Part shown: positions 13,840 through 59,846 of the stretch, one piece after another
Numbering within the stretch: the stretch's first letter is position 1
Layout: each line of letters opens with the position of its first letter
Notes under the pieces: generated by a model
Told to the model about the DNA's origin: nothing
The model's database searches: none
The model's input: the letters and a program-made list of their open reading frames with translations, nothing else
Assembly (NCBI GenBank): GCA_963674965.2
Contig: CAXXFL010000001.1
Span: forward strand, 480,001 to 544,000
Reading direction: 5' to 3'
From: a bacterium
GTDB taxonomy: Bacteria > RBG-13-61-14 > DATKZS01
DNA length: 64,000 nt
Made by a program: the position numbers and the translations under genes

Positions 13840-13848
13840 CCGTCGTTC

Positions 13849-14811: not shown

Positions 14812-14815
14812 GAAA

Positions 14816-15538: not shown

Positions 15539-15556
15539 GCGCTAGCGACGATTGTA

Positions 15557-30940: not shown

Positions 30941-33900
30941 ATGAAGGAAGAAGAGAAGATAATATCCATCCATCTGGCGGCCGCGGCCTTTCCTCTTTTG
31001 ATCGGCGGCGCCATGGCGGTTTGCCTTACCGGACTGGCCGGAAGCCTCGAGTCCGCTGGACTGGCGTCGGCGCGGTCATCAGCGATATTTACCGCCGCCT
31101 GCTTCGCGGGCATGGGTCTCATGGGCGTTCTCGTTGCCAGGATATGGACGCCGAGGACCAAAAGGCCATTGTTTGTAACGGCGCTCACGCTGATAGGGTC
31201 CGCCTTATTCCTGGTATTGGGGCCTTTATTTTGGGTGTCCTTTGTTCCGGGGGTGATGGGCGCCGCCGGTTCCGCGGTTGATCCGGGCTCGATTTCCATG
31301 GATATTTTCCGCCTGGTCTTTTTATCTATCCTTCTTTCGGCCGCCGTAATTTCCATTGGCGGGGTCCCACCGCTATTCGGAAGAGTCGCGGCTATTGGGA
31401 AAAAATCTTCCAGACTCATCTCTTCCATGGCCTTGGCTTCACTACTTATTGGGGCGGCCATTGGTAAATTCGCGGCCGGCTATTGGACGTCCCTGACCCT
31501 TGGTTATGAAAAAACGACGTGGGCCGGCTCCGCCATATTGGGGCTGGTTTCTTTGGTGATTATCATAATTCCCTCCCTCCGCGACGCAAAAGCCGCCTCG
31601 GAGGAGATTGAAGAAATTAAGGACGGCCAAAAGCGGGGCGCCAACGCCGTTTTCCTCTTTGCCCTTTTTCTCGCGGGAACGGGCGCGGCGATACTCCTTT
31701 CCACGTGGAGGGCGGTGCTCGTACTCGCCATAGGGACCTCGGTCTACTCGTCGGTGATCATATCCACCGCGGCTTTAACTTCGGCCGCCCTGGGGAACTT
31801 GTTGGCTCTTTTGCTTTTCAAGAAATTCAATAAGGCGAGTTTCATCTCGGGCGCTCTTCTTTTATCGGCTTCCTTTATTTCGACGCTCACCCTCTGGATA
31901 TATCCTTGGATCGCGGCCTCGGCCTTCAAGTGGGACGTCCTCTATCGGGAAAACTTCATCTCCTACATGTGGGTCAAGACCGGCGCGGCCTTCCTCCTTA
32001 TCGGCCTTCCCGGGTTGCTCTTCGGGGCATCGGTCGGCTTCGCGGCCAGGTATGAAGGCGAAAAGGACAAGTTCGAGAAGTGGGGATTGGCCGCCCTTTT
32101 CTTCGGGATAGGCCTGGGGCTTTTCACGGTTGGGGGCTTTATTATTCCATCTCTGGGATACCAGCGTGCCATCGCCGCGGGAGCGTCTCTTTTTCTGATC
32201 GGCGGCGCGGCCATGGCGGCCATATCCGGATCGAAGGTCTTGCTGAAAGTGGCGGCGCCGGCGGCTTGCGCCGCCGCCTTAGCCGCGCTTTTCATGTTGT
32301 CTCCATCCCGCTCTCTTCTTCTTTTAAACGGCGGTCCTTACCTTTACTCCTCCGCCTTCGAGGGGAGCCTGGCCGCGGGGGAGGACGTCCGGGACTCTCT
32401 TTCCAATTTTTACAGAATGCGTTTCTTCCAGGCGGGCGAGGAGGGGGCCGTTTCGGTCCTCGAGTTAAGGGTCTCGGAGGAAAAGCTGCTTCGCCTTGAC
32501 GGCAGGACCATATATTCCAGCAAGGCCGACGTGGCGGGCGGCCTGCTTCGGGCCCACCTTCCCATCTTGGCCCATCCCGCTCCCAAGAAGATGGCCATCA
32601 TGGGTCTGGGCTCGGGAGTCACGGCGGGAGGGGCGCTCCTTTATCCGCTCGAGCGGGTGGACGTGGCCGAGCCCTCTTCCGAGATGATTTATTCCCTGGC
32701 GCATTTTCTCGAGGTCTCGGGGCTGGCCTCGAAAAACGACTCGCGCTTGAGAATAATCAAGGAGGGCTTCCTCGATTACCTGGCGGGAACCGATGAAACC
32801 TACGACGTCATCAGCGCCAAGGGCCCCAGCCCTTCCATCAAGGGGGCCGGCGCTTATTATGGCCTCGAGTTTTTCGAGACGGCCAGGAACAGGCTCGAGC
32901 CGGGAGGCGTGTTCTTTTTCTCGGTACCCCTTTACGAGTTCGATCCCGACTCGGCCATGGCCCTTTTGCGGACCTTCGCTTCCATCTTTCCCAACTGCTC
33001 GATGTGGGAGAGTTCCCCCGGCGGAGACGAGTTTTTACTGGGCAAAGCGGACGACTCGAAAATAGACCTCGCCAACTTTCTCAGGCGCTCCTCACTGCCC
33101 CAGGTAAGGGAAGACCTGGCCAGGATTAAGGTCAAAAGCGGCGAGGACCTTTTCGCCCGTTTCGTGATGGGTCCGATCAAGATGGCCCAGGCCGGCGGGC
33201 AAGGTCCGAGAATCTCGGGCGACCGGCGGGTGCTCGAGTATCTCACGCCGCGCTACTCGGTCTCCCAGGCCGGGCTGAGGTACGGATTTGTGGTCAAGGA
33301 CGTCCTGTCCCACCACGAGAGCGCCCAGGCCGCGGCCAAGGAGACGCCCGATGAATTGAAGGAGCTTTTCGATTCCTTTGACAGGACCCGGACCCTTTAT
33401 TACTGGGCGGCCTTCCGCCTGATCGACCCGTCCCAGGGAGGCGATCAGATTGACGTCTCGATCAACTCGCTGAGGGAAGCGCTTTCCATGGGCCAGGATT
33501 ATTATCCTCGGGAGTACGTGGGCGCCATGCTGGCCGACCGACTGATCGAGAGAGCGGAGACGCGGCTGGCCTCGGGCGACGCCGCCGGGGCGGTTAAGGA
33601 CTGGAGCGAGGCCTTCGAGGCGGATCAAGAAGGGTTCCTTGCCGGCGACAGGCTCATAGCCTACCACGTGGAGACCAAGAACTGGAAAGAAGCCGACCGC
33701 TGGTCCAGGAAAAACCTCTATCGCTTTCCCAAGGACCCCCTGGCCCTGGCGACTCAAGCCCAGATACAGTTCGACGGCGCCAGATACAAGGAGGCGATCG
33801 AGCTTTACAATATGGCCGTCGAGTCAGCGCCCTTTGATCCTCTTTTCAGATGGCGCCTGGCACTGGCTTACGCCTCCATCAAGGAACTGGACAAGGCCGA

Positions 33901-34093
33901 GAAGGAGTTGAGAACGGTACTTCAATCGCATCCGTCCAACGTGGAGGCCTGGATACTCTTGTCCAACGTGCTAAAGGACAAGGGCGAAATCAGAGAATCG
34001 GAGAAGTACAGGAAGAAGGCCGAGAAAGAAGCCCCCGACCATCCCATGCTCAACCCGCCTCCCGCGGGCCAGGTGGAACTCGAGGAACGGTAA
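30941..34093 (+). CDS. fused multi-TM / spermidine-synthase-like / TPR protein
   Basis: About 12-13 TM N-terminus; HLPILAHP, IMGLGSGVTAG, YDVIS, LEPGG; C-terminal TPR repeats. Confidence 0.85.
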   Translation: MKEEEKIISIHLAAAAFPLLIGGAMAVCLTGLAGSLESAGLASARSSAIFTAACFAGMGLMGVLVARIWTPRTKRPLFVTALTLIGSALFLVLGPLFWVSFVPGVMGAAGSAVDPGSISMDIFRLVFLSILLSAAVISIGGVPPLFGRVAAIGKKSSRLISSMALASLLIGAAIGKFAAGYWTSLTLGYEKTTWAGSAILGLVSLVIIIIPSLRDAKAASEEIEEIKDGQKRGANAVFLFALFLAGTGAAILLSTWRAVLVLAIGTSVYSSVIISTAALTSAALGNLLALLLFKKFNKASFISGALLLSASFISTLTLWIYPWIAASAFKWDVLYRENFISYMWVKTGAAFLLIGLPGLLFGASVGFAARYEGEKDKFEKWGLAALFFGIGLGLFTVGGFIIPSLGYQRAIAAGASLFLIGGAAMAAISGSKVLLKVAAPAACAAALAALFMLSPSRSLLLLNGGPYLYSSAFEGSLAAGEDVRDSLSNFYRMRFFQAGEEGAVSVLELRVSEEKLLRLDGRTIYSSKADVAGGLLRAHLPILAHPAPKKMAIMGLGSGVTAGGALLYPLERVDVAEPSSEMIYSLAHFLEVSGLASKNDSRLRIIKEGFLDYLAGTDETYDVISAKGPSPSIKGAGAYYGLEFFETARNRLEPGGVFFFSVPLYEFDPDSAMALLRTFASIFPNCSMWESSPGGDEFLLGKADDSKIDLANFLRRSSLPQVREDLARIKVKSGEDLFARFVMGPIKMAQAGGQGPRISGDRRVLEYLTPRYSVSQAGLRYGFVVKDVLSHHESAQAAAKETPDELKELFDSFDRTRTLYYWAAFRLIDPSQGGDQIDVSINSLREALSMGQDYYPREYVGAMLADRLIERAETRLASGDAAGAVKDWSEAFEADQEGFLAGDRLIAYHVETKNWKEADRWSRKNLYRFPKDPLALATQAQIQFDGARYKEAIELYNMAVESAPFDPLFRWRLALAYASIKELDKAEKELRTVLQSHPSNVEAWILLSNVLKDKGEIRESEKYRKKAEKEAPDHPMLNPPPAGQVELEER

Positions 34094-37865: not shown

Positions 37866-37923
37866 AAGGCCATCAATCATCTTATTCTTTAAACTCCCTT
37901 GATCATTAACGTTATTGGCTTAT

Positions 37924-37966
37924 CCGCCTCTTAGATCGGAGATGGGAAGAGGCGGTTTTCTCTTTT
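37924..37966 (+). terminator. intrinsic terminator after ccsA
   Basis: ccgcctctt...aagaggcgg followed by ttttctctttt. Confidence 0.75.
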
Positions 37967-37987
37967 GAGACTTCGTGGTTTTCACTT

Positions 37988-38016
37988 TTGAAAAATGATC
38001 GGCCTTGTGCTATTAT
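37988..38016 (+). promoter_or_regulatory. putative sigma70 promoter in AT-rich region upstream of che operon
   Basis: TTGAAA-N17-TATTAT with TG extended -10. Confidence 0.5.
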
Positions 38017-38648
38017 TCGGTTAGTATTTCGTTAGCGGTAATACGCGCGGCGCATTATGCCATATTATTCCAATTTTCTTGCCTGGCATAATAATCGTAT
38101 CGGACGCGATCGATGCGTAACTTCTACTTTGTGCTTGCATCTTGACTTTTAACCGCAAAGTTATAATTTACTTTTTTCAGGGAACAGACTTCTTGCTTCA
38201 ATACGGATGAATCGAAGCGAGATGTGACCGTTTTATTTATAATCAGGTAGAAATCGATTCTGGGCCGTCCAGTGAACACTGGATATTGATAGGTCCGGCC
38301 ATATCGTAATTATTTTCTGGCTCGGAATCGAACCGATGGAAGGGGAAGGAGTTTGAATTGGCGTTGAATTTATTGCCAAAAGGAATATGAATTGCATGTT
38401 ATCGTTCAAGATAAGAAAAAAAATGGTCTTGGGAATAGCGAAAGTGGCGATAGCTGTCTTTGTAAATGAGGTTATTTAAAGATATAAGTAACCGAAGTTA
38501 ATAAAATTTTATCCTTACTATTTACGAGGATTCTTTGAGTTTGCCCATAAGCAAGGATGCAATTTGCATTCAGGATTGAAAGCGAAATGCAATTATTGAG
38601 GTATTTTGATAATTGGCCGCTTACGCGCCGCGCCTGGGGATACCGCAA

Positions 38649-39143
38649 ATGGTAGACTGGACCAAAGGCGTGGAACAGGCCTCTCCGGCCGCGAGCCAGT
38701 ATCTGGTGATCGGCCAGGGGGAGAGGTATGTAGGGGTGGCCATCGACAACATTGTCGAGATAATCCGTATGGTTGCGCTTAGCTCGATCCCGGAGTCCTC
38801 GGATAAAGTGGCGGGCGTGGTCAACTACCGGGGAGATATCATACCCATTATCGACCTGTGGAGTCTCCTTGGAATCGCGACCCCTCCCGTGACCCCGGAC
38901 ATGGGGATAGTGATACTCTCCAAGGACGACGAGCAATTCGGACTGATGGCGGAAAACGTGCTCGACGTCAGGTCCCTCGAGGTTAAGCCAAGGCCGGACG
39001 AACTAAAGGACGACGTGGTATGGCCCATCGTCTCGGGGGTTTCCTATCTCGATGACGAGAAGGGCCTTTTACTCGTGCTCAACGCCGAGAGATTGAAGCG
39101 GCAGCAGGCGAGCGTCGCTCAAAGCCTGAGGCCGGCGGAATGA
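38649..39143 (+). CDS. cheW: CheW-family adaptor
   Basis: IVEII, VAGVVNYRGDIIPIIDL, FGLMAENVLDV; start uncertain. Confidence 0.9.
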   Translation: MVDWTKGVEQASPAASQYLVIGQGERYVGVAIDNIVEIIRMVALSSIPESSDKVAGVVNYRGDIIPIIDLWSLLGIATPPVTPDMGIVILSKDDEQFGLMAENVLDVRSLEVKPRPDELKDDVVWPIVSGVSYLDDEKGLLLVLNAERLKRQQASVAQSLRPAE

Positions 39144-40600
39144 CGATCGCGGCCATGTCCATGGAATTCGACGCCGATCTCCTGAACGGGGCGCTCGAGA
39201 CCATCGAGCGTTCCTATGGGCTTGAATTCCCCGCCTATAAAAGGGAGGAGGTCAAGTACAAGCTCAAGCTGGCCCAGATGGAATCGAGCCATCCCACCAT
39301 GCCGTCCTTTCTCGAGGCGGTCCGCGGCGGGACCCTGTCAAGGAAAGACCTGGACGCCCTGCTTAAAAACGTCACCGTGGGCGAGAGCTACTTCTTCAGG
39401 CACGACGAACAACTCGACGACGTGGCCGACCTGGTCGTTCCCGACGTAAGCTCGTCCCTTCCCGCCAGGAACGAGACGCTGAAAATCTGGTGCGCCGGGT
39501 GCGCCACCGGGGAGGAACCCTACTCCCTGGCCATCAAGCTGGAACAGAGGGCCTACGCCATCAACCGCCCTTACGAGATAGTCGGCACCGACCTCAACCC
39601 CATGGCCATCGAGAAAGCCATAAAAGGGACCTACGAGGCCTGGTCCATGCGCGACCTCGATCCGGACGTCATCAACGGATTCTTCGCCAGAAAAAACGGA
39701 AAATACGCGCTCAAAAGAAAAATCCGGAACATGGCAAGGTTCGAGAGACAAAACCTGGCGGGCATAATGACCTCTTCCCCCTTTGGGCACGGACCATTCA
39801 CCCATCTCATCCTTTGCCGCAACGTGATCTATTATTTCTCCCCCTCCCACGCGGAGAGGGCGGTACAGCGCTTTTACGAGTGCCTCGCCCCGGGCGGATA
39901 CCTGGTACTCAGCCCCAGCGAGTCGCTTCTCGAGTTCGAGCATCCCTTTCAGACCCTCAACCTTCCCCACGCCGCGGTCTATAGAAAAATGACCGACGCC
40001 GAGGAAAGAGAGGCGGCAAAAGAAGCGCTTGGCCGGGGCCGGAAGCCGGGCCGGAACGGGCCGCGAGCGAGGAGACGGCCACTTCACGCCGTCTATAAAA
40101 GGAAAGGACCCGACGAGCTCGAGCCTTCCCTGGCCATAAGCAGGGCCATGTGTTTTTACGACGGCGGGCAATGGAACCAGGCCCTCAAGGAACTCGAGCC
40201 CCTGGCCGGGAACCTGGACGCGGACCTGGCCCGGCTGGAAATCCTTCAGTCCCTTCACAACTCGGCCCTTCTGGACAACCATTGCGAATGGATGATAAAG
40301 AACCACCCGAGCCACGTCTCGGGCTATTACTGCCGGGCCCTCCTGGCCGCCGATGACGGCGACCTCAAGGAGGCCCTGTCCTGGCTGGGCAAGGTCATGT
40401 ACCTGGACTCCGACTTCGTTCCCGGCCACCTGCAACTGGCCGCGGTGTACGGGGCCATGGGGAAGCAGGAGGAGGCGGGTCGGGCGTGGCGAAGCGCCAA
40501 GACCATTCTTTCCCGCCTCTCCGGCGAGGTGCGGATACCCTTTACCAGGGGCGAGACGGCCGGGGACCTGCTCCGGCTTATAAGCTCGAGGGAGGATTAG
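39140..40600 (+). CDS. cheR: CheR methyltransferase with C-terminal TPR (WspC/FrzF-like)
   Basis: TVGESYFFRH, IWCAGCATGEEPYSLA, ILCRNVIYYF, LAPGGYL; TPR YLDSDFVPGHLQLA. Confidence 0.92.
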   Translation: MTIAAMSMEFDADLLNGALETIERSYGLEFPAYKREEVKYKLKLAQMESSHPTMPSFLEAVRGGTLSRKDLDALLKNVTVGESYFFRHDEQLDDVADLVVPDVSSSLPARNETLKIWCAGCATGEEPYSLAIKLEQRAYAINRPYEIVGTDLNPMAIEKAIKGTYEAWSMRDLDPDVINGFFARKNGKYALKRKIRNMARFERQNLAGIMTSSPFGHGPFTHLILCRNVIYYFSPSHAERAVQRFYECLAPGGYLVLSPSESLLEFEHPFQTLNLPHAAVYRKMTDAEEREAAKEALGRGRKPGRNGPRARRRPLHAVYKRKGPDELEPSLAISRAMCFYDGGQWNQALKELEPLAGNLDADLARLEILQSLHNSALLDNHCEWMIKNHPSHVSGYYCRALLAADDGDLKEALSWLGKVMYLDSDFVPGHLQLAAVYGAMGKQEEAGRAWRSAKTILSRLSGEVRIPFTRGETAGDLLRLISSRED

Positions 40601-40603
40601 CGA

Positions 40604-41155
40604 GTGACGTCGGAGGAGTTCCTGAAAATACGTCTGGCCGACCCGGCCGACGAGGAGGTCCTGAAACGGAGGGCCGAGCAGCTCGCCAGGTCCTCCCGCG
40701 TGGAGGAGGAAAGGCAAGAGGGCGTTCACGCCCTGGTGCTCTCCGTGGGGGGCGAGAGATACGCCGTCGAGCTTCCCTATATATGGGAGGTCCTTCCCGC
40801 GGCCGAGTCCACGCCAGTTCCGGGAGTTTCCGACATGGTGAGGGGCGTAATAAAGTTCAGGGGAGAAGTGGTCCCCCTTTACGACCTCCTGGGCATAGTG
40901 ACGGGAAGGCCCCAGGAAAAAGAGCCCAAGGGCTCCCACGTGGTGTTCGGACTTGGCCAGATAGACTTCGCCGCGGCGGTGGACGGCCTCGAGCCGCCGG
41001 TAAGGATCAACCCCGAGACCCTGCGGGACTCGGTGAGCAGCCCCGGCGACAGAGGCTATTCCTACGTCCAGGGTTTCACCGAGGACGGTGTGGTGGTCCT
41101 TAACATGAAGGCCATTTTAAACGACGAGTCTCTAATCGTGGACGACGAGACATAG
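40604..41155 (+). CDS. cheW: CheW-family adaptor (WspD-like)
   Basis: [11 protein letters not shown]-terminus, [27 protein letters not shown]. Confidence 0.9.
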
Positions 41156-41178
41156 GACGTCCGGCAAGGAGAGGTAAT

Positions 41179-42756
41179 ATGTTATTACGGCTACTTAGAA
41201 AATTCTCGATCGTGACCCAGCTTCTGACGCTGGCCCTGACCATCGTGGCCCTGTTCGCGGTGCCCTCGGTCTGGTATTTCTATTACAAGTACAACGACCA
41301 GTCCATAGAAAGCCTCAAGAACAAGTCGAGTTCCATCGCCCGCATCCTGGCGGTGAACGTGTCCGCGGGGGTCGAGTTCTCGGATTCCCAGACCATCGAG
41401 CAGCTCGTGTCCGGCGTTTCCCAGGACCCCATGATAGCGGCCGTTTACGTGTTCGACGCCAAGGAGGTGCCTCTTGGGTCCTACGTCTCGGAGGGGGCCA
41501 AAGGGGCCCTTAGCCCCGAGGCCGCCTCCAACCTCCTGGGGGAAAAGGAAATAGTCTTCGACGAGACGAGGGGACTGGTAGTCGCGCAAAGGGACGTAAC
41601 CAACGCCAACGAGCGCATTGGAAGGCTCCTGCTTATCTCCTCGGCCGGCTTTACTCAGGAACAACTGCTCCAGACCCTTAAGGACGTGGGCGTGGTATAT
41701 CTCATCCTGCTGGCGGCCAACATGGTCATCGTGCTGATCCTGGCGCGGGCCTGGGTCAAGCCCATCGTGCAGGCCGCGGACATAGCCCACCGCATAGCGG
41801 AGGGGGACCTGAACGTTCCCAACCTGGAGGAGAGCGGCGACGACCAGATATCCAAGATGAGCGTGGCCATCAACGTGATGGTCAAGTCCCTTACCCATCT
41901 GCTGGCCAGGATCAACCAGTCCCACGAGTCCATCAAGAAAACCATCGCCGAAATCCAGACCTCGACGGTACAGCAAAGGCACGGCCTCGAGAACCAGGCC
42001 AGCGCCATCAGCGAGATAAGCACCACCATCAACCAGCTCAAGACCACCAGCAAGCAAAGCGCCTCCATCGCCCAGCGCGTGCTGGACGACTCCGAGCGCT
42101 CGGTCGAGGTGTCCAAGGAGGGACTGACCAGCAACGACAAGGCCGTCTCCGGCATGGACCTTATCAACGACCAGATGGAGTCCATCGCCGAGTCCATCCT
42201 CAGCCTCTCCGAGAGAAGCCAGCAGATAGTGGACATCGTGGCCACCGTCAACGACCTGGCCCAGCAGTCCAACTACCTGGCCCTTAACGCCTCCATCGAG
42301 GCCGCCAAGGCCGGAGAGCACGGCAAGGGCTTCGCCGTCGTGGCCATGGAGGTAAGGAACCTGGCCGAGCAAAGCCAGCAGGCCACCGCCCAAATAAGGA
42401 ACATACTGAACGAGATTCAAAGCAACATGAACGCCGCCGTGCTGGTCACCGAGAACGGGACTCAAAAGGTGACCGAGGGGGTCGACCTGATCCGAAGCAC
42501 CGGCGACGTCATCAACCAGCTCGCCAACGTGGTCAACCAGGGGGCGTCCTCGGCCCGGCAGATTTCTTCCTCCGCCAACCAGCAGTCGCTCGGCGTGGAC
42601 CAGATCGCCCAGGCCATTACCGCCATCAGCCAGACCATGAACGAGACCACCAACAGCGCCAAGCAGCTCGAGAGGGCCGCCGAGGGGCTATCCGAGGTGG
42701 CCGAGCTTATGACCGACGCCATTGAAAACTACGCCTCCAAGAGGAGCCAGAGCTGA
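41179..42756 (+). CDS. methyl-accepting chemotaxis protein with CHASE8-like periplasmic domain and HAMP
   Basis: TM-periplasm ([16 protein letters not shown]...[11 protein letters not shown])-TM-HAMP; hairpin [37 protein letters not shown]. Confidence 0.93.
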
Positions 42757-42760
42757 GTAA

Positions 42761-45061
42761 ATGAACGACGACGACATCATAAAGCAGCTTCTGCCCCTGT
42801 TCCGGGACTCGGCCGGCTCGGCCGTCCTCCAGGCCAACAGGACGCTGCTTCTGCTCGAGGCCTCCGAGCTGCCCGACTCGGTCAGGACGGACTCGACCAA
42901 CGAGCTGCTCCGGATACTGCACACCCTCAAGGGCGACTCGGGCTCCGTGGGCCTGGACGAGGTGGTGACCCTGTCCCATGAGATCGAGTCGTCCATGAAG
43001 GCGGTCAAGACTGAAAAGGGCATCCCCCCCGGCCTTCCCGTTTACGGGACCTGGTTCGCGGCCCTGGACAAGCTGGCCGAAATCGCCACCCAGGAATACG
43101 ACCGGGAAAGGGTCCAAAAAGAGATCGAGGAAATAAAGGAAAGACTGGCCGGGTCGGGGGGCGACGTCGCTGATCGAGGCGAGGCCCCCTCAGCCGCCGA
43201 GCGCAAAAGCGGGGAGGGACCCCCGTCGAAAACCCCGGCGGAAGAGAGCGGGCGCGAGCGCTTCCGCCGCGAGGCCCCGGAGCGGGGTGACGAGGTGGTG
43301 CGGGTGTCCTTTCGGCGCCTCACGGGCCTGACCGAGAGCATGAGCGAGTTGCTTTCCGCCCGTATTTTAAGCGAGCAGCGTCTTCACGACCTGCAGGAGG
43401 ACGCGCGCGAGCTTCTGTCCCGACACCAGGAATGGAGCAAAACGGGCCAGCGCTTCATGAACTCGATGAGCAGGTCCTACCGGCAGGGCTTCATGGACAA
43501 GGAGGCCTTCCAGGAACTGAAGGAAAAGTACAAGGAAATGGACGCCGCCGGCCAGGCTATAAAGAGGACCGGCCAGGGCATGCTGGGTTCCCTCCAGACC
43601 GCCCACAAGCAGGTGCGTCACACGGGGACGGTGATGAGGACGCAGGAGGAAAACCTGCGAGGTCTCCAGATGACGCCGGTGGCCGACCTTTTCGCCTCCT
43701 TCCACCGCTGGGTCCGGGACGCGGCCCTCGAGCTGGGCAAGAAGATCGAGTTCAAGACGGAGGGCGAGTCGGTCGAGCTCGACCGCTCCATCGTGCAAAG
43801 ACTGAGGGAGCCCCTTATACACCTTCTTCGCAACGCTCTTGACCACGGCGTCGAGACCCCCGAGGAAAGGTTGGCGGCGGGCAAGTCCGAGCGCGGCCTG
43901 GTGGCCCTCCGGGCCTTCGCCGCCGGCGGGGGCGTGGTGATCGAGGTCGAGGACGACGGCCGGGGCCTGGACACGGAGGTGATCGGAAGAGTAGCGGTCC
44001 AACGGGGCATGGTGGGGGAGGCGGAGGCGCGGAACATGAGCGAGAGGGCCGTGCAGTCATTGGCCTTCCAGCCCGGCTTCTCGACGCGGGGCAAGGTGTC
44101 CAAGATGTCGGGACGCGGCGTGGGCCTGGACGTGGTGACGGCCTGGGTCGAGGACCTTCGGGGCAGGGTCGAGTGGGATTCCAGCCCGGGCAAGGGACTC
44201 CTCATCAGGCTGAGGCTGCCCCTGACCATGGCCACCATCCAGGCGCTCATTACAAGAGTGGGCGGGCAGAAGTTCGCCATTCCCCACTCGGCGGTGGACC
44301 GGGTCCTCCGGGTCAAGACCAAGAGCCTGACCACGGTCGAGGGCAGGACCTCGATCATCCACGAGGGCCAGCCGGTCGAGCTTATTCCCCTGGCCGGACT
44401 TCTGGACATGGCGCCCAGCGAGGATGAGCACCCGGCCGAGATGGCGGTGGTTATCTCTTACGGAGCCCGCGGACCCAAGGGATGGATAGTGGACGATCTG
44501 CTCGGCGAGCAGGAGATCGTCATGAAGGACTTCACCCGCTTTTTTAAAAAGGTGAAGAACATGGCCGGCGCCGCTATCATCGGTAGTGGCGAGATAGTCA
44601 TGGTCCTCAACGCCGCCGACCTGCACCAGCGGAGCTCGGGCCTTCGGATGGACCCGGCGGGCCGGTCGGGCAAGGATCGCAAGGCGGGCGCGGCCAAGAA
44701 GGTTTTGGTGGTCGACGACTCTCTGATCACGCGGACCATGGAGCAACGCATTCTCGGCAAGGCCGGGTACGAGGTTGACGGGGCGCGCGACGGCAAGGAC
44801 GCCCTCGAGCGGATGGACAAAAACGACTACGACCTGGTGGTCAGCGACATGCAGATGCCCAGGATGGACGGGGCCGAGCTGACCCGCAATTTGAGAAAGG
44901 ACCCGCGTTACGCCGAGACGCCGGTCATCATCGTTTCCTTTTTGGACTCGGAGGAGGACAAGATGCGGGGCATGGAGGCCGGAGCCAGCGCCTACCTGAC
45001 CAAGAAACAATTCAACCAGGCCAGGCTCCTCGAGCTGGTCCAGCGCCTGATAGGTGGATAA
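42761..45061 (+). CDS. cheA: CheA-CheY hybrid kinase (WspE/FrzE-like)
   Basis: Hpt LHTLKG, HLLRNALDHG, DDGRG, SGRGVGLDVV, P5 domain, C-terminal REC (VVDDS, SDMQMP). Confidence 0.95.
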   Translation: MNDDDIIKQLLPLFRDSAGSAVLQANRTLLLLEASELPDSVRTDSTNELLRILHTLKGDSGSVGLDEVVTLSHEIESSMKAVKTEKGIPPGLPVYGTWFAALDKLAEIATQEYDRERVQKEIEEIKERLAGSGGDVADRGEAPSAAERKSGEGPPSKTPAEESGRERFRREAPERGDEVVRVSFRRLTGLTESMSELLSARILSEQRLHDLQEDARELLSRHQEWSKTGQRFMNSMSRSYRQGFMDKEAFQELKEKYKEMDAAGQAIKRTGQGMLGSLQTAHKQVRHTGTVMRTQEENLRGLQMTPVADLFASFHRWVRDAALELGKKIEFKTEGESVELDRSIVQRLREPLIHLLRNALDHGVETPEERLAAGKSERGLVALRAFAAGGGVVIEVEDDGRGLDTEVIGRVAVQRGMVGEAEARNMSERAVQSLAFQPGFSTRGKVSKMSGRGVGLDVVTAWVEDLRGRVEWDSSPGKGLLIRLRLPLTMATIQALITRVGGQKFAIPHSAVDRVLRVKTKSLTTVEGRTSIIHEGQPVELIPLAGLLDMAPSEDEHPAEMAVVISYGARGPKGWIVDDLLGEQEIVMKDFTRFFKKVKNMAGAAIIGSGEIVMVLNAADLHQRSSGLRMDPAGRSGKDRKAGAAKKVLVVDDSLITRTMEQRILGKAGYEVDGARDGKDALERMDKNDYDLVVSDMQMPRMDGAELTRNLRKDPRYAETPVIIVSFLDSEEDKMRGMEAGASAYLTKKQFNQARLLELVQRLIGG

Positions 45062-46108
45062 ATGATACGGGCCCTGGTAGTGGACGACTCCGATCTCATG
45101 CGCGAGATCATGACCCGCGCCCTCGAGACCGACCCGGACCTCGAGGTGGCGGCGGCGGCGGCGGACGGCAAGGAGGCCGTGCACATGGCCAAGAAATACC
45201 GTCCCGACGTCATCACCATGGACATCATGATGCCCCGCATGAACGGTCTCGACGCCACCCGGGTGATCATGGAGGAGACGCCCGTTCCCATCGTCATGGT
45301 CTGCGCCATCGGCGACAGCGAGGAGCAGCGCATCAGCTTCGAGGCCATGGAGGCGGGCGCGGTGTGGGTGGTCAAGAAACCCCGGGGACAGGCCACGGCC
45401 GACTGGGACACCTGGTCGCGCTCCCTTTGCCAGATCGTGAAGTCCATGGCCGAGGTCAAGGTGGTTTCCCGCCGCCCCTCCCGGGCTCCCAGGGCGGTGG
45501 ACGTCTCCACGGGGGTCGCGGTCGAGAAGACGCCCCGCGTCATAGCCATGGCCGCCAGCACCGGCGGGCCGACGGCCCTGAAAAGCGTGCTCGAGAAGCT
45601 GCCGGAGGACTTCGAGATACCCATTCTCGTCTGCCAGCACATAGCTCGAGGCTTCGTGGAGGGCATGGTCGAGTGGCTCAACTTCGACCTCGAGCTGCCC
45701 GTCCGGGTGGGGGCCACCAACGACGCGGTACGGCCCGGCGTCACCTTCGCCCCCGACCACGGCAACCTTCTCGTTACCAGGGACGAGAGGCTTATCGTGC
45801 AGCCGGCGGAGGGCGACGAGAAATATATTCCCTCGGCCGACGCGCTTTTCGAGTCGGTGGCCAGGCATTACAAGTGCGAGTGCGTGGGCGTCATCATGAC
45901 CGGAATGGGGACCGACGGAGCGGCCGGCCTCAAAAAGATATGGGACGAGGGCGGCATCACCGTGGCCCAGGACGAGGCGTCGTCTTTAATCTACGGAATG
46001 CCGGGGGCCGCCGTTAAGGCGGGAGGCGTCAAATATAAAATGGACCCCGAGGAAATAGCCCGGATGCTTATTAAGCTTCCGCGCACGGAGGACAGGAAAG
46101 CGGTTTGA
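45062..46108 (+). CDS. cheB: CheB methylesterase with REC
   Basis: REC (VVDDS, MDIMMP); triad motifs ASTGG, QHI, TGMGTDG. Confidence 0.95.
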   Translation: MIRALVVDDSDLMREIMTRALETDPDLEVAAAAADGKEAVHMAKKYRPDVITMDIMMPRMNGLDATRVIMEETPVPIVMVCAIGDSEEQRISFEAMEAGAVWVVKKPRGQATADWDTWSRSLCQIVKSMAEVKVVSRRPSRAPRAVDVSTGVAVEKTPRVIAMAASTGGPTALKSVLEKLPEDFEIPILVCQHIARGFVEGMVEWLNFDLELPVRVGATNDAVRPGVTFAPDHGNLLVTRDERLIVQPAEGDEKYIPSADALFESVARHYKCECVGVIMTGMGTDGAAGLKKIWDEGGITVAQDEASSLIYGMPGAAVKAGGVKYKMDPEEIARMLIKLPRTEDRKAV

Positions 46109-46203
46109 AAGAAGGAAAAAGCGCCGCCGGGAAAAACTCTCTTGCGGCTTGAAATAAAGGAACTTGGCAAAGCCTGATATTGCAATATGAAAAGGAGAAG
46201 GAA

Positions 46204-46773
46204 ATGAGGCTGAATTTACGTTTGGTAGTGGTAATGGCGACGCTCGCGGCCCTTGGCGCCGCGGCTGGCGCGGCGGCCGAGCAGTCGCTTCCCGCCGACC
46301 TTACCGCCGCTCTTACCCTGAAGGTCCTCACCTTCGACCGGAATTTGACGGAGCGGGCCCAGGGCGAGGTGCTGGTGGCGGTCGTGTACGCCGAGGCCGA
46401 CGCGGGCTACGCCGACGACCTGAAAAAGGGGTTCGAGGCCTTCGCGGACAAGAAGGTCAATGGGCTTTCGGTCCGCTGCGTGACCCACAAGTTCGTCGAC
46501 CTGGCCGAGCTGTCGGGATGGATGGAGACGCAAAAGGTTTGCGTGCTTTTCCTGTCGCCGGGAATGCTGGGGCAGGCGGCGCAGCTGCATGGACTGGCGG
46601 TCGAGAAGAAGTGCCTGACCGCGGGGGGCGACGCCCGCTTCCCGGAGAAGGGCACGGCGCTTGGGTTCGAGATAGCGGACGGCAAGCCCAAGATCGTGGT
46701 CCATCTTAACCGCTCCAAGGAGGAGGGGGTCAATTTCGCGGCGACCCTTCTCCAAATGGCGCGAGTCATCTAA
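46204..46773 (+). CDS. YfiR/HmsC (DUF4154)-family periplasmic protein
   Basis: Signal peptide; AALTLKVLTF, CVLFLS, LGFEIADGKPKIVVHL...GVNFAATLLQMARVI C-terminus. Confidence 0.8.
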   Translation: MRLNLRLVVVMATLAALGAAAGAAAEQSLPADLTAALTLKVLTFDRNLTERAQGEVLVAVVYAEADAGYADDLKKGFEAFADKKVNGLSVRCVTHKFVDLAELSGWMETQKVCVLFLSPGMLGQAAQLHGLAVEKKCLTAGGDARFPEKGTALGFEIADGKPKIVVHLNRSKEEGVNFAATLLQMARVI

Positions 46774-46791
46774 GAGCAAAGGAGAATCGAC

Positions 46792-48897
46792 ATGGCGCGA
46801 ACCAAGGGTTGGATTCGCTTCCGGAGATGGTCTCTCCTCCTTGCCCTCGTCCTGACGCTGCCGGCTTTCGGCGCGGCTAAGGCTCAGGCGACGGCGGCGG
46901 AGGACGAGTTCGAGGACTTCTCGGAGATCGCCCTCGAGGAGCTTTTAAACGTCACGGTCATATCGGCGTCCAAGCTCGAGCAGGACTTGAGCGACTCGCC
47001 CAACGCCATCTGGGTGATCACGGCCGAGGACATCAGGCGGGCGGGCGTCCGTACCATTCCCGAGGCCTTAAGCCTGGCCCCCGGCGTCTACGTGGCCCGC
47101 ATGTACGGCACCAAGTGGGTCGTCACCATCGGAGGCTTCGCCTTCAACAACTACTCGAACAAGCTCCTGGTCCTGGTCGACGGGGTCAGCCAGTACGCCC
47201 CCCTCTTCGGCGGCGTCGAGTGGGAGTACTTCCCCGTGGGCATAGACGAGGTCGAGAGGATCGAGGTGATAAGGGGAACGGGCGGAGTGCTCTACGGGGC
47301 CAACGCGGCCAACGGCGTTATCAACATTATTACCAAGTCGCCCTCCCGCGAGCCCTCGAGCTACGTCAACGTGAGGGGCGGGACCCAAAGCCTGCGCGAG
47401 ACCAACGCGGGCGCCAACCTTTCCACCGACGACGGCGTGATATCGGCCCGGCTGGCCGTGACCTACACCGAGGACGAGGGGTTCGGCATGAAGAATGGAG
47501 AAACCATTCAGGACGGCAAGAACTTCCACGTCGTTTCCCTGCGGACCTCCATCGCCCCTACCGAGTCGGCACTTATCAGCCTGGACGCCAGGTACCGGGG
47601 CGGCCCCTTCGAGACGCCGAACGTTTCGACCGCCAAGCCGGAGGTGTGGAAAAACCTGGAGAACGCCTTTTACCGGGCCAGGTGGGACCAGACCCTGGAC
47701 TCGGGGGCCCAGTTCTATATCCAGTCCTATTACTGGCGCATGCTGCTCCAGGAAAGGGACGACACCGCCAGGTACGAGGACTCGGAGGACTCGGAAATCG
47801 CCGACGTCGAGTTCCAGGCCATGGTTCCCTTCGAGGCGGCCGGGTCGCACCGTTTCATCTTCGGCGGCGGCTACCGGACGATCAGGGACGAGCAGTTTAT
47901 CCTCAAGGACGGCGAGCAGGACTACACCGTGGCCAACGGTTATTTCCACGACGAGTGGAGCTTTAACGACCAGTGGAGCCTGAACGCCGGGCTCAAGTAC
48001 GAGTCCATAAGCCTGGTGGACCCGACCTGGCAGTGGAGAGGGGCAATACTGTACCAGCCCACCCGGGAACACGGCTTCAGGCTGGCCGCCTCGAACGCCT
48101 ACAGGTCCCCAGCCCTCACCGAGATGTACCAGAACATAGGGGCCGAGCTGCCCGACGCCCTGGTACCTCTCCTGGCTGGAAGCTGGCCCACTCCTCCTCC
48201 TTACTACATCGTGCAGGTGCTCGGGAACGAGGACCTGGAGCCCGAGCAGATACTTTCCTACGAGGCCGGCTACAGGGGCATTTGGTTCGACAGGATGAAA
48301 ATAGACGTGAGTTACGCCTACAAGCAGTACGACAACCTCATCTCCTTTTATCTGGCGGACGAGGGATTCTACGTGACTCCTCCTTTCCCGCCCACTCCCT
48401 TCGGGCCCTTCGGCCTGGTCTATGGCTATTCCCAGCAGGGAGAAGCCACCAGCCAGAACCTGGACGTGGGCATAAGCGCCAGGATTACGAGGTCCTTTAG
48501 GGTGCTGGCCAACTACTCTCACGTGGACATAGAAGTGGACGGGCCCAACGCCTTCGAGGGGTTCGAGAAGAACTCTCCCGAGAACTACGGTATGATCGGC
48601 CTGGGCTACACCCACGAGAGGGGCTTCATGGCCGACGTCTCGGCTTACTACGTGGACGAGATCGAGATTTTCAACGCCGAGGACCCGACGGCCCCTCCCT
48701 TCAAGATCGACGCCTACTGGCGCCTGGACGCCAGGCTGGCCCAGTCGGTGAAGATGAGGGACGGAGAACTCGAAATCGGCGTGGTGGGCACGAACCTTGC
48801 TGATGAATGGCATGAGGAATACGTGGATTTCTCACAGGACGTCGATCCATTTCAAGTCAGGACGGGATACTACGGGTATATCGAATACCGGAGGTAA
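46792..48897 (+). CDS. TonB-dependent receptor
   Basis: Signal peptide; ALEELLNVTVISASK, VITAEDIRRAG, LVLVDG, ERIEVIRG..GVLYGANAANGVINIITK plug; beta-barrel C-terminus. Confidence 0.92.
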   Translation: MARTKGWIRFRRWSLLLALVLTLPAFGAAKAQATAAEDEFEDFSEIALEELLNVTVISASKLEQDLSDSPNAIWVITAEDIRRAGVRTIPEALSLAPGVYVARMYGTKWVVTIGGFAFNNYSNKLLVLVDGVSQYAPLFGGVEWEYFPVGIDEVERIEVIRGTGGVLYGANAANGVINIITKSPSREPSSYVNVRGGTQSLRETNAGANLSTDDGVISARLAVTYTEDEGFGMKNGETIQDGKNFHVVSLRTSIAPTESALISLDARYRGGPFETPNVSTAKPEVWKNLENAFYRARWDQTLDSGAQFYIQSYYWRMLLQERDDTARYEDSEDSEIADVEFQAMVPFEAAGSHRFIFGGGYRTIRDEQFILKDGEQDYTVANGYFHDEWSFNDQWSLNAGLKYESISLVDPTWQWRGAILYQPTREHGFRLAASNAYRSPALTEMYQNIGAELPDALVPLLAGSWPTPPPYYIVQVLGNEDLEPEQILSYEAGYRGIWFDRMKIDVSYAYKQYDNLISFYLADEGFYVTPPFPPTPFGPFGLVYGYSQQGEATSQNLDVGISARITRSFRVLANYSHVDIEVDGPNAFEGFEKNSPENYGMIGLGYTHERGFMADVSAYYVDEIEIFNAEDPTAPPFKIDAYWRLDARLAQSVKMRDGELEIGVVGTNLADEWHEEYVDFSQDVDPFQVRTGYYGYIEYRR

Positions 48898-48899
48898 AA

Positions 48900-49373
48900 A
48901 TGTCTAAGTATTTTGACCTGAGCGGGGCGAGCGATCCCCTGGACCGGACCAAGGGGTTCGTGCCCAGACGAAACCCCGACTCGGCTGGACGGGAAAACCC
49001 TCAGGGAAAACTTAAAAAAGTCCTGATCGTCGAGGATTCCCAGATACAGGCCGAGATGTACAGGCTCGTGTTCGCGACGGACAAGTGCAAAATCATATTC
49101 GCGGAAAACGGAAAAGAGGCCCTCGAGGTCCTCACCCGCGAACTCAACGTCGATCTTATCATTACCGACATTAACATGCCGGAAATGAACGGGATCGACT
49201 TCTTGACCATGGTCAGGAGGACCGGCTTGGCCAAATGCCCCATCATCGTCACCAGCACGCCGGAAAACAAGGACCTGCTCGAAAAGGCCGTCGAGTCCGG
49301 GGCCTCCTCGTATATGGTCAAGCCATGGGACTTAAGGGAGCTTCGAGCTCTGGTTAAAAGACTGGTCGGCTGA
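48900..49373 (+). CDS. single-domain response regulator with N-terminal extension
   Basis: VLIVEDS, ITDINMPEMNG, VTS, YMVKPW; 2 bp after receptor stop. Confidence 0.9.
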   Translation: MSKYFDLSGASDPLDRTKGFVPRRNPDSAGRENPQGKLKKVLIVEDSQIQAEMYRLVFATDKCKIIFAENGKEALEVLTRELNVDLIITDINMPEMNGIDFLTMVRRTGLAKCPIIVTSTPENKDLLEKAVESGASSYMVKPWDLRELRALVKRLVG

Positions 49374-49660: not shown

Positions 49661-50179
49661 CTAGTAAAGCGACGTCTCCCAGGTGGCCGGGTCCGGTCCG
49701 TTATTGAAAAGGTTGCAATTGGAGATGGCGTTGGCTCTGGCGCTGGCCGTCAGCGTGCCCGTAGCCGATGTGTTTGAGGTATATTTCCCCTCGAAAGACC
49801 CGACTCCCACGCTTCCACATGTGCCTCCCGTCTCGGTCAGGGAGCCTTGAATATTCTTATCGGTCAGCGTTCCCGTTATGATAAAGGACCTCTCTATCCA
49901 AACCCCGCCTCCCGGAAAAGATATCTCCAAAGGTATGGTTATAGTCCCGGAGACGTTACCCTGGTCGTCAACCGTAAAGTTAAAGTTAGCGTCATCCGTA
50001 AATGGCGTATCTCTCCAGATAAAATGCACCGTCCCGGAATATGAGCCGGGTTGAGGCGTGATCTGAACTCCATTGTCTCCGCCGCTATCTCCTCCATCAT
50101 CCCCGCAACCCAATGCCAGGAAACAAACGCAAAACGCAAGGAACAAGAAAGACGCAAACCGTGCCGTGATAATTCTCAT
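49661..50179 (-). CDS. hypothetical lipoprotein
   Basis: Lipobox LALGC then GDDGGDSGG linker, beta-rich Thr/Gly domain; AT-richer. Confidence 0.75.
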   Translation of the reverse strand: MRIITARFASFLFLAFCVCFLALGCGDDGGDSGGDNGVQITPQPGSYSGTVHFIWRDTPFTDDANFNFTVDDQGNVSGTITIPLEISFPGGGVWIERSFIITGTLTDKNIQGSLTETGGTCGSVGVGSFEGKYTSNTSATGTLTASARANAISNCNLFNNGPDPATWETSLY

Positions 50180-50367
50180 CGCCTCCACTCCTTTTGGTTA
50201 TGACCGTTATTTGCAGAAATTTTTCAATTCATTTGGGATTATTGCCCTCTATATTTCTTGGGAACCCAGGTAAAAAGAAATTCAAGCATAGGTGGCGTTA
50301 CTTGTCAATACAAATCACTATCAACAGAGCCTCTTGCAAAATTCCCGCTTTGGAGTGCGGCGGCTCG

Positions 50368-51815
50368 TGTACAGACCGGAGACATGCTTCACAAGTGTTC
50401 GGGCACATAGGTAACATATTTCCTCGCTTGCTCGCGCTCCTGCTATTGACCTATTTTTCCTCGACCTAAGTTTATCTATGCATCGATCACGTGGCCAGTC
50501 AAGGGCGGCGCAGCCGTCCCGCAGGGATTTACCCTTGACGGGCCTCGTGGAGATGCTATCGTCCTCATGGTCGAGAAAACCTTTTATCACGTTTGCCTCC
50601 AGCTATGGTCTCGCAGATCGACGACCATGATCCGTTGGCGGCAGTAATAAACCTCGATCACGCCGTCCACTTGTGTATTTCGCAAGCCGACCTTTTCACC
50701 AACGAAGGCCCGCCCCACCGGATAAAACTCGCCTTTGATTCTAACCGCCCCGCCCGGGTTCACCTTGCAAGTCGGCCAATCATCCCGATACCAGACTTCG
50801 GGCAGAGTCTCGGGATAGGCAAAGGGGCTCATCGCGTAACGGCTGGCCGGCGTGTTCATGTCCAGGGCCTCGTGGGGACGTTCATGGTTATAGCAGTCGC
50901 GAAAACGGTCGAAGGCTTTCTGACAGTCGTCCAGGTCGCCGAAGTTGCGTCCCCTTATCGCCTCCTCCTTAAGGGTCCGGTTGAACCGCTCGTTCTTGCC
51001 CTGGGTCTGGGGATGAAAGGGACGGCCGTGGCTGATGCCGACGCCGAGCCTGATCAGCCAGGCGCTCATGTAGTTGTAACGCGAGTTCGGCGCGCAGAAG
51101 CTCGATCCGTTGTCGGTAAGTATGCGGCTGGGCAGGCCGTAGCGCATGAAGACCGGCGCCAGGCTTGCCCGCACGGTGTCCGCCCGTTCGTTGGAGCAGG
51201 CGGTGACCGTCAACGCGAACCTGGAGTGGTCGTCCACCACGGTGAGAGGGTGACAGGAACCGGCCGCCGTCGGAAAATGTCCCTTGAAATCCATCTGCCA
51301 CAACTGGTTGGGAGCCTCTCGTTCGAAACGCTTCATGGGACCGCGAGCCTTGCGCTGGGCGTCCCGCAGCCTGCCGTTGCGGTCGAGGATCGCCGTGATC
51401 GTGCTCGGCCTTGGCACTTCGTCGTGACCAAGATCGATCAGCCGCCGCTCGATTTTGCGCCCTCCCCAGGTCGGATGCTCGTCGCGAACCGAAAGCACCA
51501 ACTGCTCGACCTCCGGGCAAACACGCTGGGGAGATCGCCTGGGACGGCGGGACCTGTCACATGCCCAGTCCTCTTCACCGCTTTGCCCACGGCTGATCCA
51601 CTTGTAGCCGGTGCGGCGACTGATACCGAATCGACGGCATAACTCGCTTATGTTGGAACCTGGCTGCATCGCTAAATAAACAAAATCCTTCCTCTGAGAC
51701 ACTTCGGTAACCTCATTCCATGGCATCTTTCTTCTCCTGTATTGACATACAGAAGAATGTACCAACTGTTACCCATGTCTCCGAACACCTGTTACCCATG
51801 TCTCCGGTCTGTACA
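50368..51815 (-). mobile_element. IS481-family insertion sequence (1448 bp)
   Basis: Perfect 19-bp terminal IR tgtacagaccggagacatg; 4-bp target duplication CTCG (50364-50367, 51816-51819); empty site visible in second MITE copy. Confidence 0.95.
50587..51726 (-). CDS. IS481-family DDE transposase
   Basis: MPWNEV, ELCRRFGISRRTGYKW HTH; WQMDFKG, TDNGS, QGKNERFNRTLKEE. Confidence 0.95.
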   Translation of the reverse strand: MPWNEVTEVSQRKDFVYLAMQPGSNISELCRRFGISRRTGYKWISRGQSGEEDWACDRSRRPRRSPQRVCPEVEQLVLSVRDEHPTWGGRKIERRLIDLGHDEVPRPSTITAILDRNGRLRDAQRKARGPMKRFEREAPNQLWQMDFKGHFPTAAGSCHPLTVVDDHSRFALTVTACSNERADTVRASLAPVFMRYGLPSRILTDNGSSFCAPNSRYNYMSAWLIRLGVGISHGRPFHPQTQGKNERFNRTLKEEAIRGRNFGDLDDCQKAFDRFRDCYNHERPHEALDMNTPASRYAMSPFAYPETLPEVWYRDDWPTCKVNPGGAVRIKGEFYPVGRAFVGEKVGLRNTQVDGVIEVYYCRQRIMVVDLRDHSWRQT

Positions 51816-59664: not shown

Positions 59665-59846
59665 ATAGTCTCCCTTTCTTAAATTACGCCCCCTTACCCC
59701 CGATGGCAAGACGCGGGTGGAACGACTTCGACGAATGAATTGTCAGCTATAAGAAGATTGGCCTCGGGCGGCCTCTCGGAAGAATCCGGCCGCCGGAAAA
59801 ATAATCGGTTGAATCGGGGAGATTAGGGAGTAAAATTATAAATACC

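Follow-up and report, generated by a model that had tools for sequence, protein, structure and literature searches.

The 64,000-nucleotide stretch of contig CAXXFL010000001.1 that was analyzed here (assembly GCA_963674965.2, positions 480,001 to 544,000; hereafter the window) contains a nine-gene chemosensory (che) locus that also encodes a periplasmic YfiR-like protein and a TonB-dependent receptor (TBDR). The reading we favor, with a probability of about 0.55, is that the nine genes constitute one operon and one pathway, an alternative-function chemosensory system in which the sole receptor, a methyl-accepting chemotaxis protein (MCP), uses the CHASE8-HAMP sensor of a TBDR/YfiR-like/CHASE8 module. 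The che operon is a rare chemoreceptor-output variant of this widespread module, which is catalogued but experimentally unreported in the literature searched.

The MCP is the only CHASE8-type open reading frame (ORF) in the 64-kb window, and the ORF at 46204-46773 is the only one that is YfiR-like. In related loci from other genomes, the two are regular neighbors. Directly after the YfiR-like gene comes a CHASE8 sensor in 28 of the 30 loci surveyed, and directly before it a TBDR in 22 of them. Therefore, the TBDR, the YfiR-like protein, and the CHASE8 sensor represent a conserved module found across many phyla. The adjacency of the MCP and YfiR-like genes in the window also exceeds chance because each is the sole ORF of its kind in 64 kb and because they are directly paired in these 28 loci.

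The nine genes are co-oriented on the forward strand at 38613-49373, and Pfam gives their order as CheW, CheR-TPR, CheW, CHASE8-HAMP MCP, CheA with a receiver domain (REC), CheB, YfiR-like protein, TBDR, and a lone REC. The intergenic gaps are, in order, -4, 3, 23, 4, 0, 95, 18, and 2 nt, and the G+C content of third codon positions (GC3) is within 0.74-0.86 for each gene. The features of the locus and its borders are as follows.

37866..38612, + strand: intergenic region and likely promoter, 747 nt, AT-rich, 5' of the operon
38613..39143, + strand: cheW-1, 176 aa from a TTG at 38613 (the initial annotation started it at 38649); Pfam CheW, E 6e-25
39140..40600, + strand: cheR with a C-terminal TPR region, 486 aa; Pfam CheR, E 2.7e-41; S-adenosylmethionine (SAM) motif CAGCATGEEPYS
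40604..41155, + strand: cheW-2, 183 aa; Pfam CheW, E 1e-19
41179..42756, + strand: transmembrane chemoreceptor (MCP) with a first transmembrane segment (TM1), periplasmic CHASE8 domain (about residues 37-168), second transmembrane segment (TM2), HAMP, and MCPsignal
42761..45061, + strand: cheA with a C-terminal receiver, 766 aa; Pfam Hpt, HATPase_c, CheW, and REC
45062..46108, + strand: cheB, 348 aa; REC and methylesterase (Pfam); NCBIfam PRK00742, 322.6 bits against a cut-off of 293
46109..46203, + strand: cheB-yfiR gap, 95 nt, with a purine-rich Shine-Dalgarno-like stretch before the ATG at 46204, as read from the sequence
46204..46773, + strand: periplasmic YfiR-like (DUF4154) protein, 189 aa, with a Sec-type signal peptide as read from the sequence
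46792..48897, + strand: TBDR, 701 aa, with a signal peptide, the TonB-box-like stretch LNVTVISA, plug, and barrel
48900..49373, + strand: stand-alone receiver, 157 aa; REC at 41-152, Pfam E 2e-26, and no other domain
50587-51765, - strand: IS481-type transposase (rve, rve_3, HTH_32, LZ_Tnp_IS481), 1.2 kb downstream of the last operon gene

The initial annotation had described nine co-oriented, tightly spaced genes with these domains, intact catalytic motifs, and no GGDEF (WspR) output. Pfam and the coordinates confirm the gene set, and no GGDEF domain is detected by Pfam in any of the nine genes. The motifs that we take to be the catalytic ones of CheA, CheB, and CheR were all located in the operon proteins. 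CheA possesses H54 (HTLKG), the G1 box DDGRG, and the G2 box GRGVG, while CheB possesses D53, AASTGG, CQH, and GTDG. The lone REC retains the acidic pair, the aspartate in ITDINMP, the threonine, and the lysine, making it a candidate CheY-like output or phosphate sink.

A CheA-REC hybrid, a CheR with a TPR tail, two CheW proteins, and CheB are marks of the Wsp or alternative-cellular-function class. The earlier assignment of the che set to this type (Wsp/Frz) agrees with the domains found, namely CheA-REC, two CheW, and the lack of GGDEF. The TPR region is the weak element, as the matches at residues 386-441 of CheR are every one below their own Pfam cut-offs. The Wsp system of Pseudomonas begins with its MCP and further comprises two CheW, a TPR-tailed CheR, a CheA-REC hybrid, CheB, and a WspR-type REC-GGDEF protein. 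The window shares with it the MCP, the two CheW, the CheR with a TPR-type tail, the CheA-REC, and the CheB. In contrast, the WspR-type protein has a lone REC in its place, the MCP is the fourth gene rather than the first and carries a CHASE8 sensor, and two envelope genes are added.

The sensor of the MCP is CHASE8-like, as the initial annotation had proposed. Pfam CHASE8 (PF17152) matches residues 45-152 with 42.6 bits against a cut-off of 27, and the domain lies between two transmembrane segments and before a HAMP domain at 188-239. In an AlphaFold2 (AF2) model of residues 1-250 (pLDDT 90.3), TM1 leads into a long periplasmic helix, which is followed by a five-stranded PAS/Cache-like domain, TM2, and HAMP. 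The closest solved folds to this model are those of the WalK extracellular domain, of a periplasmic domain of LapD type (target-normalized TM score, TMt, of 0.73), and of CitA. Both WalK and LapD are under the control of partner proteins.

The first 250 residues of the MCP align over their full length with the N-termini of 25 sensors that are located 3' of YfiR-like genes. Invariant across this alignment are P195, the proline of HAMP, and F67, which is the sole periplasmic residue to be so. F67 falls in the N-terminal portion of the periplasmic domain, where ten mutations that release YfiN from YfiR are also located in that protein (PMC3375315), a likeness by region. Among the NCBIfam models, the MCP N-terminus matches NF053592 (HK_near_YfiR_like) with 57.3 bits (cut-off 194), which is better than its 37 bits for DgcN/YfiN. 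Its output domain is MCPsignal and not HisKA/HATPase, and the protein is not a member of NF053592.

The combination of CHASE8 and MCP output is uncommon. One other CHASE8-HAMP-MCP was found (P0006), which shares 43% identity with the MCP of the window over the N-terminal 250 residues and 62% across the whole alignment. When longer proteins were searched with a profile of the sensor N-terminus, 105 of the 120 best matches contained PF17152, GGDEF was present in none of the 120, and PF00015 was present in the MCP of the window alone; this profile was built from kinase-type N-termini, and the best-120 listing is therefore biased toward them. A tblastn search of plasmids with the MCP N-terminus returned two marginal matches alone, in Peptoclostridium and Bacillus.

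The protein encoded at 46204-46773 is YfiR-like, which also agrees with the initial annotation. The ORF can be read from 46180 as well, while the database copy P0001 begins at 46204. Pfam DUF4154 ('YfiR/HmsC-like') matches with 32.1 bits against a cut-off of 24.9. An AF2 model based on an alignment of 127 relatives has a mean pLDDT of 95.3, and the best Foldseek matches by TMt are the solved P. aeruginosa YfiR chains (0.73-0.75, rmsd 3.2-3.6). Ranked by E-value instead, first place goes to a single-domain 'substrate-binding protein' from Rhodothermus marinus (3.5e-8), and halves of ABC-type binding proteins come next. However, the sequence profile of the YfiR-like family finds no match to the P. 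aeruginosa YfiR chains at E<=1, and the protein has no match at E<=1e-5 to the canonical YfiR model NF053586 (sequest_YfiR). Because the fold matches YfiR while the sequence profile and the canonical model do not, the protein is best described, on sequence and model together, as a DUF4154 member with a predicted YfiR fold and not as a YfiR ortholog.

The family to which this protein belongs is large. HMMER searches with the protein yielded 1745 cluster representatives at E<=1e-3, mostly with 25-37% identity and about 190 aa in length. Close relatives are few. A word-index search returned four, the window's own copy included, and close proteins elsewhere are P0002, P0003, P0004, and P0010; a tblastn search of plasmids found nothing. 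The sole NCBIfam match is NF053591 (TOL_0243), with 27.7 bits against a cut-off of 125, and the C-terminal 51 residues can be aligned with a TOL_0243-family member. A prediction of the complex between MCP residues 37-168 and residues 26-189 of the YfiR-like protein gave a score of 0.00 and a mark of 0.32 in a run without controls, and it counts neither way.

The best Foldseek match by E-value is represented by the PDB entries 5Z6V, 6K1W-6K1Y, 8WGK, and 8WGL, all of the R. marinus 'substrate-binding protein.' A close relationship of 5Z6V to the window protein found no backing in the sequences; its profile E-value is a marginal 0.05, and the YfiR-like protein of the Rhodothermaceae locus L018 has no PDB match. 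Table S4 of Malone et al. lists Rhodothermus with a yfiRN pair and a kinase output (PMC3375315), and the crystallized protein may be a differently named member of the DUF4154 superfamily.

The TBDR has an ordinary architecture. Pfam identifies the plug at 66-176 (76.8 bits) and the TonB_dep_Rec barrel (124.5 bits). An N-terminal signaling extension, such as that of the FecA-type transducers, is absent, as the plug begins at residue 66 and Pfam detects no extra domain. The top NCBIfam match is NF053590 (TOL_0244), with 282.2 bits against a cut-off of 645, and the next family scores 122.5 bits. As judged from these sequence features, the plug and TonB-box-like stretch without an extension fit ligand import at least as well as they fit sequestration of a YfiR-type protein. 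The C-terminus reads ...GYIEYRR and thus has a non-aromatic end; that of the nearest relative, in the surveyed locus L004, reads ...GKIEYRF.

The survey of related loci consisted of one scan of species-representative genomes with the pattern LK[VI]L[TS][FY]DRN, derived from a six-sequence alignment, and it returned 30 loci. The ORFs in these loci were searched with the nine proteins of the window, with Pfam, and with our own profiles. The pattern restricts the loci to one branch of the family; none of their proteins exceeds 35% identity to that of the window, whose own lineage is thus outside the sample. The 30 loci hold 34 YfiR-like genes whose products are 23-35% identical to the window protein, and they come from Gemmatimonadota, Acidobacteriota, Aminicenantes, Ignavibacteriota, Zixibacteria, KSB1, WOR-3, Calditrichota, and others.

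A CHASE8-type sensor lies directly 3' of 29 of the 34 YfiR-like genes, and the two loci without one are L025 and L027. In 23 of the 28 sensor loci the domain is recognized by Pfam CHASE8 at E<=1e-6, and in the other five by phmmer or by our own profile. The sensors of L006, L007, L014, and L021 were recognized by phmmer with the N-terminus of the window MCP, and those of L014, L021, and L028 by a profile that was built without them. The TBDR directly 5' of the YfiR-like gene was identified by script in 19 loci, by Pfam in L011 and L017, and by phmmer in L024. It is absent from seven (L003, L008, L012, L022, L025, L028, and L030), and L018 lies too near a contig end to be judged.

The sensors linked to a TBDR are uniform in their outputs, as all that could be read (18 of 18 loci) are histidine kinases or hybrid kinases. 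Sensors with GGDEF or GGDEF-EAL outputs are found in five loci (L003, L008, L012, L022, and L030), each of which lacks an upstream TBDR. Output type thus tracks TBDR presence in the survey, and in L008 and L012 serS is upstream of the YfiR-like gene. A lone REC gene lies 3' of the kinase in six loci (L002, L004, L005, L009, L011, and L017). The module is duplicated in L009 and L005. In L009, a TBDR-YfiR pair (7730-17424 for the whole array) is directly followed by TBDR-YfiR-kinase-REC-REC-(REC-kinase). L005 contains two TBDR/YfiR pairs, within 431-3286 and 7672-14148, with YfiR-like proteins that are identical in the tree (branch length 0) and a sensor after one pair only.

The three parts of the module are also catalogued in NCBIfam as consecutive models: NF053590, the TOL_0244 TBDR; NF053591, the TOL_0243 YfiR-like periplasmic protein; and NF053592, the YfiR-like protein-associated sensor histidine kinase. 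The TBDR and the YfiR-like protein of the window have the first two as their top matches, and the MCP N-terminus matches the third. This triad has the same three components as the window. In the triad, however, the sensor is a kinase, while in the window it is an MCP located upstream, inside a che operon, and the YfiR-like gene precedes the TBDR gene. Members above the cut-offs are present in L004, where a TBDR (693.7 bits) and a YfiR-like protein (160.5 bits) are followed by a CHASE8-PAS kinase and a REC; the TOL_0243-type protein of this locus scores 51.5 bits with NF053586 (sequest_YfiR), under the cut-off of 85. A Sphingobium replicon carries a YfiR-like member that exceeds the cut-off (139.9 bits), flanked by a TBDR and a hybrid kinase, and on a Pseudoalteromonas replicon a TBDR is followed by an annotated 'YfiR family protein' and then by a 587-aa ORF. 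In the surveyed branch, none of the 34 proteins scanned (31 locus proteins and three close homologs) reaches the TOL_0243 cut-off, indicating that the module is wider than the curated models.

One known system of related design is YfiBNR (TpbB/AwsXRO) of P. aeruginosa and its relatives. Malone et al. reported from co-immunoprecipitation and mutants that YfiR binds to YfiN at the latter's periplasmic domain and that YfiB sequesters YfiR (Malone et al., 2012; PMC3375315). Like the window, this system combines a secreted DUF4154 protein with an inner-membrane sensor of the form TM-CHASE8(PAS-like)-TM-HAMP, and an outer-membrane protein is encoded alongside. The YfiR fold is matched by the window protein (TMt 0.73-0.75), and the DgcN/YfiN model by the MCP N-terminus (37 bits). 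In contrast, the output of the YfiBNR sensor is GGDEF, while the sensor of the window has an MCP signaling domain feeding CheA. The outer-membrane gene of YfiBNR encodes the OmpA/Pal-like lipoprotein YfiB, in place of which the window has a TBDR; Pfam detects no OmpA/Pal-like domain among the nine operon genes. The sequence kinship of canonical YfiR to the window protein is remote.

The same authors described the YfiR-YfiN[PAS/HAMP] core as widespread and modular, and they list HK, GGDEF-EAL, HPT, and MCP outputs for YfiN-like sensors, the MCP case being from Polaromonas and in silico (PMC3375315). Their Table S4 enters this case as 'YfiN with MCP output domain'; in it, a YfiR homolog stands beside a YfiN-like sensor with an MCP output, as in the window. 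The comparison is by description only, and the one-line table note makes no mention of che genes or of a TBDR. The word 'TonB' has no occurrences in the main text and searched supplements of the paper (PMC3375315). TOL_0244 is named in one paper alone within the literature searched; there, the Thalassolituus protein was sevenfold upregulated on n-C28 and interpreted as an uptake protein and alkane uptake candidate, and OmpS of Alcanivorax dieselolei was reported to be 40.3% similar to it (PMC6304351). OmpS has been presented as a sensor of alkanes and a trigger of chemotaxis that acts upstream of an MCP/CheR/CheW set (PMC9788540). By this description, OmpS is a TBDR with a place ahead of such a set like that proposed for the TBDR of the window. 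However, OmpS is reported to trigger the expression of chemotaxis genes, and the accounts consulted describe no YfiR-like partner for it.

In the literature searched, no link is made between DUF4154 or YfiR-like proteins and TonB-dependent receptors, and no experimental test of the TBDR-linked form or of the MCP output is reported. The initial annotation had regarded the architecture as being without a characterized counterpart. That view calls for qualification: the literature searched holds no experimental report, but the parts of the module proved to be catalogued already, as the NCBIfam trio and, for the MCP output, in Polaromonas.

The phylogenies of the sensor and the YfiR-like protein were inferred by a quick method with SH-aLRT support only, and in both of them the window proteins are on long branches. 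In the sensor tree, the window MCP and P0006 form a clade (SH-aLRT 100) within one of two sensor groups and outside the core of that group. In the other tree, the window protein forms a clade (99) with P0002, P0003, and P0010 outside the corresponding core clade. The two trees are congruent but silent on the origin of the MCP sensor. These positions are consistent with joint descent of the pair, as far as such trees can suggest, and they are no proof of it.

From the gene content, domains, folds, and spacing of the operon and the occurrence of the triad elsewhere, we infer the protein contacts, ligand, sign of regulation, and output as follows. The secreted YfiR-like protein would bind the PAS/Cache-like CHASE8 domain of the MCP, and this contact would set a signaling state that passes through TM2 and HAMP to the CheW/CheA-REC array. 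CheA would then phosphorylate CheB, which would provide adaptation together with CheR, and the lone REC, which would act as the output or as a sink. The TBDR would serve as the outer-membrane input, most plausibly through TonB-driven import of a ligand into the periplasm. The YfiR-like protein, which resembles a substrate-binding protein (SBP), would bind the imported ligand and alter its hold on the receptor. Import is preferred because the TBDR has an ordinary TonB-box-like stretch and no signaling extension, because the YfiR-like model has the fold of a ligand-binding half-domain, and because YfiR itself binds small molecules. For P. aeruginosa YfiR, weak binding of vitamin B6 and L-Trp was reported, with an affinity put at the ten-millimolar level, in a pocket that also takes F57 of YfiB (Xu et al., 2016; PMC4887326). 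More tentatively, and with odds well short of even, the TBDR and a YfiR-like shuttle may be the input of the CheA array and an instance of a general trans-envelope device that many phyla have connected to histidine kinases and that is connected here to a chemoreceptor.

Several observations weigh against the reading of one operon and one pathway. CheA, CheW, CheR, the CheB methylesterase, and the MCP signaling domain are found in none of the 30 surveyed loci, and the che-linked form of the module is rare. Of the co-occurrence in other genomes that the initial annotation had anticipated, the TBDR/YfiR-like/CHASE8 triad is thus borne out (22 of 30 loci) and the che-linked version is not (0 of 30). 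The gene order is TBDR, YfiR, sensor in all 22 TBDR-linked loci, from which the order in the window differs, with the sensor followed by cheA-cheB (3.4 kb), YfiR, TBDR, and REC. The scores of the window trio are far below the NCBIfam cut-offs (282/645, 27.7/125, and 57.3/194 bits), and the lack of a profile match to P. aeruginosa YfiR belongs here as well. The 95-nt gap between cheB and yfiR could contain a promoter. Finally, the IS481-type transposase downstream makes it possible that the locus was rearranged at its 3' end.

An alternative is that the locus consists of two adjoining units. The yfiR, TBDR, and REC genes would then have been displaced or have decayed from a TBDR/YfiR-like/CHASE8-kinase module whose kinase was lost or lies elsewhere, and the CHASE8 domain of the MCP would sense alone. 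The inverted order of YfiR and TBDR, the gap ahead of yfiR, the nearby transposase, and the lack of che linkage in the survey all suit this explanation, as do the TBDR/YfiR pairs that have no adjacent sensor (L027 and one copy each in L005 and L009). However, the 64 kb contain no second CHASE8 ORF, the gap (46109..46203) contains no terminator-like site on the forward strand, and yfiR-TBDR-REC and the che genes have strand, close spacing, and GC3 in common. Moreover, since a CHASE8 sensor adjoins the YfiR-like gene in 28 of 30 loci, it is unlikely to be by accident that the only CHASE8 protein of the region lies 3.4 kb away. The existence of close relatives of the MCP (P0006) and of the YfiR-like protein (P0002, P0003, P0004, and P0010) elsewhere also indicates that neither gene is decaying. 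Two separate units are improbable.

Somewhat less doubtful, yet still unlikely, is the mechanism of the initial annotation, a role for the TBDR like that of YfiB, in which a ligand-loaded or stressed receptor captures the YfiR-like protein at the outer membrane and derepresses the MCP with no need for import. In its favor, the operon has no OmpA/Pal-like gene, so that sequestration would need an outer-membrane partner other than YfiB, and in many loci (e.g., L001, L019, and L026) the gene for the TBDR touches or overlaps that for the YfiR-like protein, which is compatible with a complex. Tight spacing is common also for genes whose products make no contact, however, and this TBDR, with its plug beginning at residue 66, lacks any additional periplasmic domain. 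The literature searched does not connect TBDRs with YfiR-type proteins, and we know of no TBDR that binds one. The coupling might also be metabolic only, with the TBDR taking up a nutrient and the YfiR-like protein acting as a periplasmic binding protein or chaperone, co-expressed with a taxis-like pathway directed at that nutrient but without contact with the MCP. The SBP-like fold of the YfiR-like model and the interpretation of the sevenfold induced TOL_0244 of Thalassolituus as an uptake protein (PMC6304351) would agree with this. Nevertheless, Pfam detects no inner-membrane transporter gene in the operon, such genes are not regularly present across the 30 loci, and the regular partner of the TBDR/YfiR-like pair is a CHASE8 sensor, which argues for a role in signaling. 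Of the explanations considered, a purely metabolic link seems the least credible.

Chemoreceptors are usually thought to read ligands that diffuse into the periplasm. A receptor controlled through a periplasmic partner and an energized outer-membrane transporter would bring within reach of chemosensing those compounds whose uptake depends on TonB, or else the condition of the outer membrane. A cue at the outer membrane, whether taken up or sensed, would in that case come under methylation-based adaptation. Of possibly greater importance is the broader finding that the TBDR/YfiR-like/CHASE8 module occurs in 22 of 30 loci from many phyla and is named in an annotation library, yet has no reported test in the literature searched. 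While the che-linked form would offer a readout with adaptation, the kinase-linked forms in the culturable Sphingobium, Pseudoalteromonas, and Thalassolituus provide tractable hosts.

The surroundings of the operon are ordinary chromosomal genes, including those for cytochrome c assembly, a sulfatase, GltX, DnaK, Rho, and an RseP-like protein, and no flagellar genes are near it. The upstream region contains two sigma-70-like sites, at 37988-38016 and 38286-38313, a number not above chance expectation. Between the operon and the transposase are two ORFs without a Pfam family, at 49661-50188 (-) and 50194-50469 (+).

Elsewhere in the window, a second signaling cluster at 4299-10935 (-) encodes a REC, a REC with MshEN, a REC with HisKA/HATPase, a 1076-aa PAS-GAF kinase, and another REC; the N-terminus of the PAS-GAF kinase matches the AraC-type arabinose-binding domain. 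A 1050-aa protein encoded at 30941-34093 (+) combines a spermine/spermidine-synthase-like domain (residues 538-687) with C-terminal TPR repeats. Additionally, the 591-aa ORF at 57934-59709 (-) contains a full LytB/IspH domain (residues 18-292) and a UbiA prenyltransferase-like region (residues 448-555), and it may be a fusion.

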